This document shows, piece after piece, positions 37,531 to 39,678 of a stretch of DNA of 64,000 nt. Positions within the stretch are counted from its first letter, which is position 1; every line of letters starts with the position of its first letter. The stretch comes from Escherichia coli (GTDB lineage: Bacteria > Pseudomonadota > Gammaproteobacteria > Enterobacterales > Enterobacteriaceae), in NCBI RefSeq assembly GCF_003334355.1, contig NZ_QOWP01000003.1. One strand, written 5' to 3'. Both the position numbers and the translations under genes were made by a program. The notes below the pieces were generated by a model, which was not told the origin of the DNA, ran no database searches, and worked only from the letters and a program-made list of their open reading frames with translations.

Positions 37531-39678
37531 ATGAAAAAAGTCGTCACGGTTTGCCCCTATTGCGCATCAGGTTGCAAAATCAACCTGGTCGTCGATAACG
37601 GCAAAATCGTCCGGGCGGAGGCAGCGCAGGGGAAAACCAACCAGGGTACCCTGTGTCTGAAGGGTTATTATGGCTGGGACTTCATTAACGATACCCAGAT
37701 CCTGACCCCGCGCCTGAAAACCCCCATGATCCGTCGCCAGCGTGGCGGCAAACTCGAACCTGTTTCCTGGGATGAGGCACTGAATTACGTTGCCGAGCGC
37801 CTGAGCGCCATCAAAGAGAAGTACGGTCCGGATGCCATCCAGACGACCGGCTCCTCGCGTGGTACGGGTAACGAAACCAACTATGTAATGCAAAAATTTG
37901 CGCGCGCCGTTATTGGTACCAATAACGTTGACTGCTGCGCTCGTGTCTGACACGGCCCATCGGTTGCAGGTCTGCACCAATCGGTCGGTAATGGCGCAAT
38001 GAGCAATGCTATTAACGAAATTGATAATACCGATTTAGTGTTCGTTTTCGGGTACAACCCGGCGGATTCCCACCCAATCGTAGCGAATCACGTAATTAAC
38101 GCTAAACGTAACGGGGCGAAAATTATCGTCTGCGATCCGCGCAAAATTGAAACCGCGCGCATTGCTGACATGCACATTGCACTGAAAAACGGCTCGAACA
38201 TCGCGCTGTTGAATGCGATGGGCCATGTCATTATTGAAGAAAATTTGTACGACAAAGCATTCGTCGCTTCCCGTACAGAAGGCTTTGAAGAGTATCGTAA
38301 AATCGTTGAAGGCTACACGCCGGAGTCGGTTGAAGATATCACCGGCGTCAGCGCCAGTGAGATTCGTCAGGCGGCACGGATGTATGCCCAGGCGAAAAGC
38401 GCCGCCATCCTGTGGGGCATGGGTGTAACCCAGTTCTACCAGGGCGTGGAAACCGTGCGTTCTCTGACCAGCCTCGCGATGCTGACCGGTAACCTCGGTA
38501 AGCCACATGCGGGTGTTAACCCAGTTCGTGGTCAGAACAACGTACAGGGTGCCTGCGATATGGGCGCGCTGCCGGATACGTATCCGGGATACCAGTACGT
38601 GAAAGATCCGGCTAACCGCGAGAAATTCGCCAAAGCCTGGGGCGTGGAAAGCCTGCCAGCGCATACCGGCTATCGCATCAGCGAGCTACCGCACCGCGCA
38701 GCGCATGGCGAAGTGCGTGCCGCGTACATTATGGGCGAAGATCCGCTGCAAACTGACGCGGAGCTGTCGGCAGTACGTAAAGCCTTTGAAGATCTGGAAC
38801 TGGTTATCGTTCAGGACATCTTTATGACCAAAACCGCGTCGGCGGCGGATGTTATTTTACCGTCAACGTCGTGGGGCGAGCATGAAGGCGTGTTTACTGC
38901 GGCTGACCGTGGCTTCCAGCGTTTCTTCAAGGCGGTTGAACCGAAATGGGATCTGAAAACGGACTGGCAAATCATCAGTGAAATCGCCACCCGTATGGGT
39001 TATCCGATGCACTACAACAACACCCAGGAGATCTGGGATGAGTTGCGTCATCTGTGCCCGGATTTCTACGGTGCGACTTACGAGAAAATGGGCGAACTGG
39101 GCTTCATTCAGTGGCCTTGCCGAGATACTTCAGATGCCGATCAGGGGACTTCTTATCTGTTTAAAGAGAAGTTTGATACCCCGAACGGTCTGGCGCAGTT
39201 CTTCACCTGCGACTGGGTAGCGCCAATCGACAAACTCACCGACGAGTACCCGATGGTACTGTCAACGGTGCGTGAAGTTGGTCACTACTCTTGCCGTTCG
39301 ATGACCGGTAACTGTGCGGCACTGGCGGCGCTGGCTGATGAACCTGGCTACGCACAAATCAATACCGAAGACGCCAAACGTCTGGGTATTGAAGATGAGG
39401 CATTGGTTTGGGTGCACTCGCGTAAAGGCAAAATTATCACCCGTGCGCAGGTCAGCGATCGTCCGAACAAAGGGGCGATTTACATGACCTACCAGTGGTG
39501 GATTGGTGCCTGTAACGAGCTGGTTACCGAAAACTTAAGCCCGATTACGAAAACGCCGGAATACAAATACTGCGCCGTGCGCGTCGAGCCGATCGCCGAT
39601 CAGCGCGCCGCCGAGCAGTACGTGATTGACGAGTACAACAAGTTGAAAACTCGCCTGCGCGAAGCGGCACTGGCGTAA
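37531..39678 (+). CDS. fdhF: Formate dehydrogenase H, selenocysteine-containing (UGA at 37948-37950 recoded as Sec140)
   Basis: ORF-track ORFs 37531-37950 and 37999-39678 are in the same frame separated only by one TGA; N-terminal CPYCASGCKINL 4Fe-4S motif; total 715 codons. Confidence 0.95.
37951..37990 (+). other. SECIS stem-loop directing Sec insertion at fdhF UGA140
   Basis: cacggcccatcggttgcaggtctgcaccaatcggtcggtaatggc immediately 3' of the in-frame UGA; bacterial SECIS position. Confidence 0.85.

Follow-up and report, generated by a model that had tools for sequence, protein, structure and literature searches.

Reading the in-frame TGA of fdhF as selenocysteine in an Escherichia coli contig

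Two open reading frames (ORFs) lie close together on the plus strand of the 64-kb stretch of Escherichia coli DNA analyzed here (the window), and the question they raise is whether they are two genes or one. A program-made ORF list places them at 37531-37950 (139 amino acids) and 37999-39678 (559 amino acids). A first-pass annotation, made from the sequence alone, held that the two are one gene, fdhF, with a TGA at 37948-37950 as the only interruption of a common frame. Translation confirms this arrangement: 37531-39678 (+) is a single open frame with one internal TGA at that position, and the starts of the two ORFs are offset by 468 nt, which is 156 codons and puts both in the same frame. Sixteen sense codons, HGPSVAGLHQSVGNGA, lie between the TGA and the ATG at 37999, and the ORFs are 48 nt apart. 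We conclude that 37531-39678 is almost certainly fdhF, the gene for formate dehydrogenase H (FDH-H), the enzyme of formate hydrogenlyase that contains selenium and molybdenum, with its TGA decoded as selenocysteine (Sec) by means of a SECIS element and its expression probably under sigma54 and FhlA. Selenocysteine recoding in bacteria has fdhF as its founding example. The recoding of fdhF here is an already known, textbook case and adds no new biology.

The protein encoded by the full frame matches FDH-H. When the TGA is read through, the coding sequence at 37531-39678 (+) consists of 715 codons and a TAA stop codon, and codon 140 specifies Sec. All 715 residues of the resulting protein agree (100% identity) with the FDH-H of PDB entries 1aa6, 1fdi, 1fdo, 2iv2 and 7z0t, the last of these an entry for the formate hydrogenlyase complex. 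Chain 1aa6_A has X (Sec) at position 140, followed by histidine (His141), and the TGA of the window (37948-37950, +) aligns to this X; the comparison therefore bears out the claim that fdhF is one Sec-recoded gene. The same comparison places the 16 codons between the two ORFs within the solved protein. The UGA adjoining the SECIS is reported to encode Sec140 of FDH-H (PMC10945757).

Profile searches give the same picture. With Sec140 written as Cys, read-through FdhF scores 1095.7 bits against NCBIfam TIGR01591 (formate dehydrogenase alpha subunit, FDH-H type; cut-off 666.25) and covers profile positions 1-672 of 672; the 139- and 559-amino-acid fragments correspond to positions 1-128 and 146-672 of this one profile. 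The Pfam domains identified are Fe4S4 (PF04879, residues 1-54), Molybdopterin (PF00384, 61-487) and Molydop_binding (PF01568, 576-682). The Sec140 TGA falls within the Molybdopterin domain, and the 139-amino-acid fragment comprises the Fe4S4 domain and about 80 residues of the molybdopterin domain. Translation shows Cys8, Cys11, Cys15 and Cys42, which we take to be the Fe-S cluster ligands of the FDH-H crystal structure.

The codon and its surroundings are conserved within and beyond the species. Of 5421 E. coli records, 5393 show 99% identity or more over a 90-nt stretch around the TGA. In other species, the TGA is found in the identical context ...CCARV-U-HGPSVAGL... at 112 loci. This set of orthologs was obtained from 120 pattern matches by excluding eight that lacked the CCARV context. 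Seven of these (L016, L022, L046, L063, L113, L118 and L121) are chance matches outside fdhF, and the eighth, L114, could not pass the filter because of its closeness to the end of its locus.

The locus also has the expected company. The fdhF of E. coli K-12 (b4079) encodes the same protein, has the same neighbors, mdtP and yjcO, and carries the same sigma54 site, and no functional difference separates it from the gene in the window. Most E. coli records differ from the window by scattered substitutions only. The nearest complete genome, that of strain PSS-12 (NZ_AP027697.1), shows 100% identity to the window across the 25 kb compared, the single exception being an IS1 that in PSS-12 lies between alsK and yjcS and is absent from the window. 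The selenocysteine machinery that the first-pass annotation said should be sought elsewhere in the genome (selA, selB, tRNA-Sec [selC] and selD) is all found in this near-identical relative. NZ_AP027697.1 also carries the formate hydrogenlyase activator gene fhlA (labeled 'flhA' in the record), hycA-I, hypA-E and hydN-hypF.

Signals for translation and termination flank the frame. A Shine-Dalgarno sequence, GGAG, can be read at 37519-37522 (+), 8 nt before the fdhF ATG, and the CTGGAGC around it is nearly invariant in a 20-locus alignment. Past the stop codon by 14 nt, a terminator scan finds an intrinsic terminator at 39692-39720 (+), with a G+C-rich stem of nine pairs followed by seven Ts.

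Upstream of the gene, a sigma54 -24/-12 element, GTGGCATAAAAGATGCA, is located at 37463-37479 (+), with its GG at 37465-37466 and its GC at 37477-37478, in canonical spacing. This element had been proposed before, and it agrees letter for letter with the published ChIP-seq site OS41, which is assigned to fdhF; the sigma54 ChIP-seq paper flags OS41 at fdhF as experimentally confirmed in EcoCyc. The predicted transcription start is at about 37490, and the distance of 41 bp from this start to the ATG is the same as in the ChIP-seq paper. Salmonella fdhF carries TGGCATAAAACATGCATA as its sigma54 element. The motif TGGCA-N6-TGCA is invariant in the 20-locus alignment, and 76 of 103 orthologous loci have it no more than 250 nt from the ATG. 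The generic -24/-12 pattern, with up to one mismatch allowed, is not enriched in the 64-kb window (five matches, against 7.2 expected from shuffles). The assignment is thus based on the position of the element, its identity to the published site and its conservation in 76 of 103 loci.

Farther upstream, six half-sites of the form YGTCR/YGACR lie within 60 nt at 37354-37411 (+), and they appear to form an upstream activating region of candidate FhlA sites about 80-135 bp before the start. No other part of the 64 kb reaches this density, a test that is partly post hoc, as the half-sites were defined after the sequences and the published consensus had been viewed. The region contains the palindrome CGTCAAAACTGACG at 37379-37392, centered at about -104 from the predicted start, and the half-site element TTCGTCAG at 37404-37411. 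Inverted repeats are found at 37342-37363 and 37381-37388/37412-37419. In the alignment of 20 Enterobacteriaceae loci, TCGnCACGTCA-N4-TGACGA and TTCGTCAG show no variation or almost none.

It has to be asked whether these palindromes have any connection with FhlA, or whether they are only the terminator of mdtNOP or sites for another regulator. The hairpin at 37340-37365 (+) speaks for the terminator. It is found just past the mdtP stop codon (37333) and is followed by TTTCGTTTCG; a terminator scan describes an 11-pair stem and a T-rich tail, the inverted repeat has perfect 8-nt arms, and Salmonella and one Kluyvera locus share a compensatory change in it from G:C to A:U. The palindrome at 37342-37363 is most likely the mdtP/mdtNOP terminator, and to this extent the earlier proposal that the upstream palindromes fit FhlA regulation is not borne out. 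The score of the best upstream site with the published FhlA matrix (PMC7658346) is also modest, as it reaches 8.07 bits out of a maximum of 17.5 and ranks 110th among 128,000 positions, and the loose FhlA consensus does not discriminate, with 122 matches in the 64-kb window. The half-sites at fdhF are mostly CGTCA/TGACG, while hyc has TGTCG/TGACA forms, which accounts for the only moderate matrix score of the fdhF sites.

The remaining evidence makes a complete lack of connection with FhlA quite improbable. Blocks 37374-37394 and 37404-37411 persist at loci where the sequence farther upstream no longer aligns with the window, and the half-site cluster to which they belong is the densest in the 64 kb. 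The nearest genome has similar clusters at two other places, between hypA and hycA and upstream of hydN. The hypA-hycA region resembles fdhF in having a -24/-12 element together with upstream YGTCR/YGACR clusters, whereas upstream of hydN a pattern search finds the cluster but no -24/-12 element. In Salmonella, the hyc, hyp and hydN-hypF operons are given as being under FhlA control. Moreover, the half-sites at fdhF precede a confirmed sigma54 promoter by about 80-135 bp, and an enhancer-binding protein is required at promoters of this class. Of the palindromes, it is the conserved one at 37379-37392, within the half-site cluster, that fits FhlA, and for it the earlier proposal probably holds.

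The 3' arm of the mdtP hairpin overlaps the distal conserved GTCAC (37356-37360). This GTCAC is kept even where sequence farther upstream does not align with the window, which hints at a role at the DNA level apart from the hairpin. The region 37340-37365 might then double as the RNA terminator of mdtNOP, the efflux operon upstream, and as a third FhlA contact, although we consider this unlikely. If it were so, the dual use would couple mdtNOP read-through to fdhF activation.

The TGA itself is part of a hairpin. The Rfam model SECIS_2 (RF01988) matches 37943-37997 (+) over model positions 1-55 of 55 with 87.1 bits (gathering score, 70; E = 1.8e-17 for the whole 64-kb window), and the lower stem of the element includes the TGA. 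SECIS_3 (RF01989) reaches 35.8 bits at 37945-38003, below its gathering score of 63, so the hairpin is not a member of that family. The minimal SelB-binding mini-helix, GGUUGCAGGUCUGCACC, corresponds to 37962-37978 (+), which are nt 15-31 when the U of UGA is taken as nt 1. In the literature, this mini-helix is 17 nt long, begins 11 nt after the UGA and has U17, G23 and U24 as essential nucleotides (PMC8659212). The fdhF hairpin has the same spacing of 11 nt and all three nucleotides: the bulged U17 is 37964, the GGUC loop is 37969-37972, G23 is 37970 and U24 is 37971. The earlier placement of a SECIS-like stem-loop directly after the TGA is therefore supported. The fdhF SECIS is the standard SelB ligand in the literature (PMC10945757). 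The hairpin at 37943-37997 is a bacterial SECIS of the fdhF type, for which SelB binding and Sec insertion are predicted from the sequence.

The check suggested for this hairpin was to fold 37948-37995 and compare it with the fdhF SECIS consensus. The match to the consensus was obtained, but the folding energy does not stand out from shuffles: the fold has -14.9 kcal/mol (z = -0.67), 49 of 200 shuffles are as good, and the energy alone is not significant. High folding stability is not a defining feature of SECIS elements in the literature, and the value carries no weight against membership. The significance of the hairpin comes from the covariance model and from conservation across species, not from folding energy.

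The 112 orthologous loci provide 43 distinct sequences of the hairpin, and these bear on whether the hairpin is an RNA element or only reflects the conserved peptide HGPSVAGLHQSVGNG and has no role as RNA, the UGA being passed by near-cognate read-through with Trp or Cys. A highly conserved peptide could indeed cause much of the nucleotide conservation, and the folding energy, no better than that of shuffles, also speaks for this view. Where the peptide changes, however, the two sides of the stem change jointly: nt 18 and nt 29 are paired in 43 of 43 sequences (UA in 37, AU in 4 and CG in 2), and nt 15 and nt 31 form GC (36), UA (5) or CG (1). Altogether, 91.2% of the SECIS cells are paired; sliding the partner columns lowers this to 22-50%, and none of 500 shuffles attains the observed score. 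U17 and the GGUC loop do not vary in any of the 43 sequences. Mutation of U17 or G23 abolishes the reading of UGA (PMC8659212), and a scrambled SECIS in which the frame is kept is in use as a null allele (PMC10945757). Together, these observations leave the peptide explanation with almost no probability.

The pairing that fits these sequences best differs slightly from that of Rfam. In the SECIS_2 consensus, nt 17 pairs with nt 29 and nt 18 is bulged, a pairing that is possible in 39 of the 43 sequences. The alternative, with U17 bulged and nt 18 paired with nt 29, is better, as it is possible in all 43 and involves three pair types, and it also agrees with the bulged U17 of the literature (PMC8659212). 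The lower stem is weakly kept, with one pair unpaired in 29 of the 43 sequences and another in 13. Compensatory changes in the SECIS are confined to a few lineages (Pasteurellaceae and Shewanella) and so represent few independent events.

That the TGA is a true stop codon, leaving either two genes (one for a small Fe-S protein, the other for a molybdopterin protein) or an fdhF nonsense pseudogene, would account for the two ORFs of the program-made list and for the separate fragment proteins of public collections, but it is scarcely credible for a TGA that interrupts a single Pfam domain, is followed by no start codon until 37999 and by 16 codons that belong to a solved protein, is matched by a curated SECIS model, and is essentially invariant, together with its surroundings, in about 5,420 E. 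coli genomes and at 112 loci of other genera.

With the TGA read as Sec, the following course of events can be proposed from what is known of the Sel system. Formate-bound FhlA would activate transcription from the conserved half-sites, and the sigma54 promoter would start it about 41 nt upstream of the fdhF ATG. A ribosome arriving at UGA codon 140 would meet the mRNA hairpin that starts at this codon. The apical mini-helix, with its bulged U17 and GGUC loop, would be bound by the C-terminal domain of SelB, which would bring Sec-tRNA(Sec) and GTP, and selenocysteine would be inserted in place of termination. Sec140 would then ligate molybdenum at the active site of FDH-H.

For annotation, and for annotation quality only, the case matters because pipelines that treat TGA as a stop codon split the gene. 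The first-pass annotation called for fdhF to be annotated as one gene, and rightly, but curated annotation needs no such correction: RefSeq/PGAP already has one CDS, fdhF, at exactly 37531-39678. Such splits do occur in public collections. It had been expected that naive ORF calling would report a truncated Fe-S protein and a separate molybdopterin protein. The split itself is on record, but the first piece is not simply an Fe-S protein, given its share of the molybdopterin domain. Each of the exact 139- and 559-amino-acid fragments is recorded as a protein of its own on at least 1000 contigs, and the 90%-identity clusters that hold them have 2,374 and 11,377 members, respectively.

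Bacterial selenocysteine recoding has its textbook example in fdhF, which the window carries at 37531-39678 (+ strand) and which is both known and annotated already. Mechanical ORF calling breaks it into two + strand ORFs, one of 139 aa (37531-37950) and one of 559 aa (37999-39678). Their starts lie 468 nt, or 156 codons, apart, so that the frame is common. The first-pass annotation had described them as a same-frame pair interrupted by the TGA at 37948-37950, to be abandoned if the frames differed; this is accurate, and the TGA is the sole internal stop when 37531-39678 is translated as one stretch. 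The ORFs stand 48 nt apart because the list resumes at the next ATG. Between the TGA and that ATG (37999) lie 16 sense codons, HGPSVAGLHQSVGNGA.

A 2.5-kb query round fdhF matched 5,420 of 5,426 complete E. coli genomes, and at every match the gene is annotated fdhF, with mdtP and yjcO as neighbours. The locus is absent from six of the 5,426 genomes in the RefSeq collection; four plasmid-labelled records match, and one genome has two copies. The top match is strain PSS-12 (NZ_AP027697.1), with 100% identity, where RefSeq has one CDS with coordinates exactly equivalent to 37531-39678. With the TGA codon entered as Cys, the 715-aa read-through product equals formate dehydrogenase H chains 1aa6, 1fdi, 1fdo, 2iv2 and 7z0t at all positions (residue 140 is X in these chains) and scores 1095.7 bits against NCBIfam TIGR01591 (cut-off 666.25). 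An in-frame stop could also mark a pseudogene. This is contradicted by the agreement with these chains and by the 90-nt stretch round the TGA: of 5421 E. coli records, 5393 keep it at 99% identity or more, whereas just 3738 do so over the whole 2.5-kb query.

The idea of two separate genes finds an echo in the databases, where each ORF product, the 139-aa and the 559-aa, is entered in its exact sequence as a protein of its own, on at least 1000 contigs apiece. The clusters that contain them have 2,374 and 11,377 members, and names such as "Formate dehydrogenase H" are attached to some. Naive ORF calling thus divides fdhF in practice, as had been anticipated. Two genes are nevertheless contradicted by the TIGR01591 profile, of which one fragment covers positions 1-128 and the other 146-672; the two together make up a single family member that lacks just the SECIS-encoded peptide. 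The Pfam domains are Fe4S4 (residues 1-54), Molybdopterin (61-487) and Molydop_binding (576-682). The TGA, codon 140, therefore falls within the molybdopterin domain, and the expected split does occur, but its first fragment does not amount to an Fe-S protein in its own right. Likewise, a single Sec-recoded gene is the right annotation, but no correction is needed, since RefSeq already has one CDS.

The stem-loop after the TGA is a bacterial SECIS element, as proposed. Rfam SECIS_2 (RF01988) matches full length at 37943-37997 with 87.1 bits (gathering score 70); SECIS_3 scores 35.8 bits, under its threshold of 63. The mini-helix (nt 15-31, counted from the U of UGA; 37962-37978, +; GGUUGCAGGUCUGCACC) begins 11 nt past the UGA. 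U17 falls at 37964, G23 at 37970 and U24 at 37971 (all +). The published fdhF SECIS layout and SelB contacts (U17, G23, U24, 11-nt spacing; PMC8659212) match the window exactly, and Sec140 has been confirmed as encoded by a UGA adjoining the SECIS (PMC10945757). The suggested folding check succeeded against the SECIS model but not on energy: the predicted -14.9 kcal/mol is no better than that of shuffled sequence (z = -0.67), so stability by itself is insufficient to identify the element.

Orthologues were sought in one genome per species with the pattern TGACAYGGNCCNTCNGTNGCNGG, giving at least 120 loci. The context CCARV-TGA-HGPSVAGL is present in 112 of the 120 loci listed, from Enterobacterales, Pasteurellaceae, Shewanella and one contig binned as Desulfovibrio. 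Seven of the remaining eight are chance matches without the CCARV context; the eighth, L114, is a genuine fdhF that failed the filter with the locus end too near. The 43 distinct 55-mers align gap-free with U17 and the GGUC loop invariant, with the caveat that the pattern itself fixes two of every three bases throughout the 5' half. In the Rfam consensus (alignment at 37943-37997) nt 17 pairs with nt 29 and nt 18 is bulged, and 90.7% of cells pair; with U17 bulged and nt 18 paired to nt 29 the figure is 91.2%. The latter structure fits the 43 sequences better: 18:29 is paired in all 43, in three pair types (UA 37, AU 4, CG 2). It is also in accord with the literature (PMC8659212). Pairs at 15:31 are GC 36, UA 5 and CG 1. 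The lower stem is weakly maintained, which agrees with its reported dispensability (PMC8659212). The encoded peptide might by itself yield a hairpin as a by-product; this is contradicted by the control with slid partners, which gave only 22-50% pairing, and by the covariation score, reached by none of 500 shuffles, the compensatory changes stemming from few lineages.

Several Enterobacteriaceae (Pluralibacter, Cedecea, Silvania, Klebsiella oxytoca, Leclercia) have two fdhF-type TGA genes each (L023/L024, L050/L051, L069/L070, L077/L078, L088/L089, L021/L105). Per set, one copy only has a sigma54-like motif within 250 nt upstream, and the second copy has another N-terminus, e.g. MKNVITV or MTKVTTV. 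The Desulfovibrio desulfuricans-binned contig (L074; QKDT01000278.1, 3.8 kb) carries an enterobacterial-type fdhF with a SECIS nearly that of E. coli; contamination of the bin or recent transfer probably accounts for it.

Absence of the selenocysteine machinery had been named as grounds for rejection; selA, selB, tRNA-Sec and selD were all found in PSS-12, which is 100% identical to the window over the 25 kb compared except for an IS1 between alsK and yjcS. This IS1B (17255-17952 of the PSS-12 stretch L005; ~777 bp extra) is absent from the window at about 30,250, so the window stems from a sibling strain and is not the PSS-12 assembly itself. PSS-12 also carries the formate hydrogenlyase activator gene, hycA-I, hypA-E and hydN-hypF. 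RefSeq labels the activator (28459-30537 of the PSS-12 stretch L126; NZ_AP027697.1 4003459-4005537) 'flhA'/'FlhA', not fhlA, a naming slip that invites confusion with the flagellar gene flhA.

The sigma54 -24/-12 element, GTGGCATAAAAGATGCA (37463-37479, +), is borne out by letter-for-letter identity to OS41, the E. coli K-12 ChIP-seq motif attributed to fdhF and experimentally confirmed per EcoCyc. The OS41 paper places the predicted start 19 bp past the motif centre and 41 bp from the gene start, and the window reproduces this (37471 + 19 = 37490; 37531 - 37490 = 41). The Salmonella counterpart, at a gene that is sigma54- and FhlA-dependent, is TGGCATAAAACATGCATA. Of 103 orthologous loci, 76 have TGGCA-N6-TGCA no more than 250 nt from the start codon; across the window the bare pattern is not enriched (5 found vs 7.2 expected). 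A Shine-Dalgarno GGAG (37519-37522, +) lies 8 nt ahead of the ATG, and a 9-pair stem with T7 (39692-39720) forms an intrinsic terminator downstream. A short palindrome, GCGCGTATGCGYG (37493-37512), sits in the 5' untranslated region, after the predicted start and ahead of the Shine-Dalgarno, and is kept in Escherichia, Citrobacter, Salmonella and Kluyvera and not in remoter loci.

Three inverted repeats were found upstream of fdhF, where palindromes had been linked to FhlA regulation; the palindrome at 37379-37392 is the one that fits this link. The repeat at 37342-37363, 9 nt past the mdtP stop, can be extended to a stem of 11 pairs, after which comes TTTCGTTTCG; this is a terminator form. 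In Salmonella and in a single Kluyvera locus one of its G:C pairs has become A:U, a compensatory change. We read it as the likely mdtNOP terminator. When the 230 nt 5' of fdhF are aligned for 20 Enterobacteriaceae loci, blocks of sharp conservation stand out amid otherwise diverged spacer: GTCAC (37356-37360), TCGnCACGTCA-N4-TGACGA (37374-37394; containing the palindrome CGTCAAAACTGACG at 37379-37392), TTCGTCAG (37404-37411), the -24/-12 element and the Shine-Dalgarno region. Against the published consensus TG(A/T)C-N6-G(A/T)CA (PMC7658346), the 37379 site scores 8.07 of a possible 17.5 bits with that paper's matrix, rank 110 of 128,000, so the match is moderate. That the palindromes are unconnected with FhlA is made unlikely by the YGTCR/YGACR half-sites in the conserved blocks, whose density of six per 60 nt is the unique maximum of the 64-kb window, under a half-site definition that was partly post hoc. 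PSS-12 has similar clusters between hypA and hycA and also upstream of hydN. Judged by position and conservation, the half-sites are well-supported candidate FhlA sites.

Elsewhere in the window, yjcF (pentapeptide-repeat protein) is split into overlapping ORFs at 53485-53871 and 53777-54778 (+; 128 and 333 aa), and in the near-identical PSS-12 RefSeq annotates it as a pseudogene with a frameshift. Rfam naRNA4 (REP-type repeats) gives seven matches, at 10922-11099, 13576-13656, 40466-40649 and 51184-51255, with a pair between yjcO and gltP, directly downstream of the fdhF locus. The small RNAs sraL (58495-58635, +; 153 bits) and STnc630 (5090-5255, - strand; 182 bits) both match at full length.
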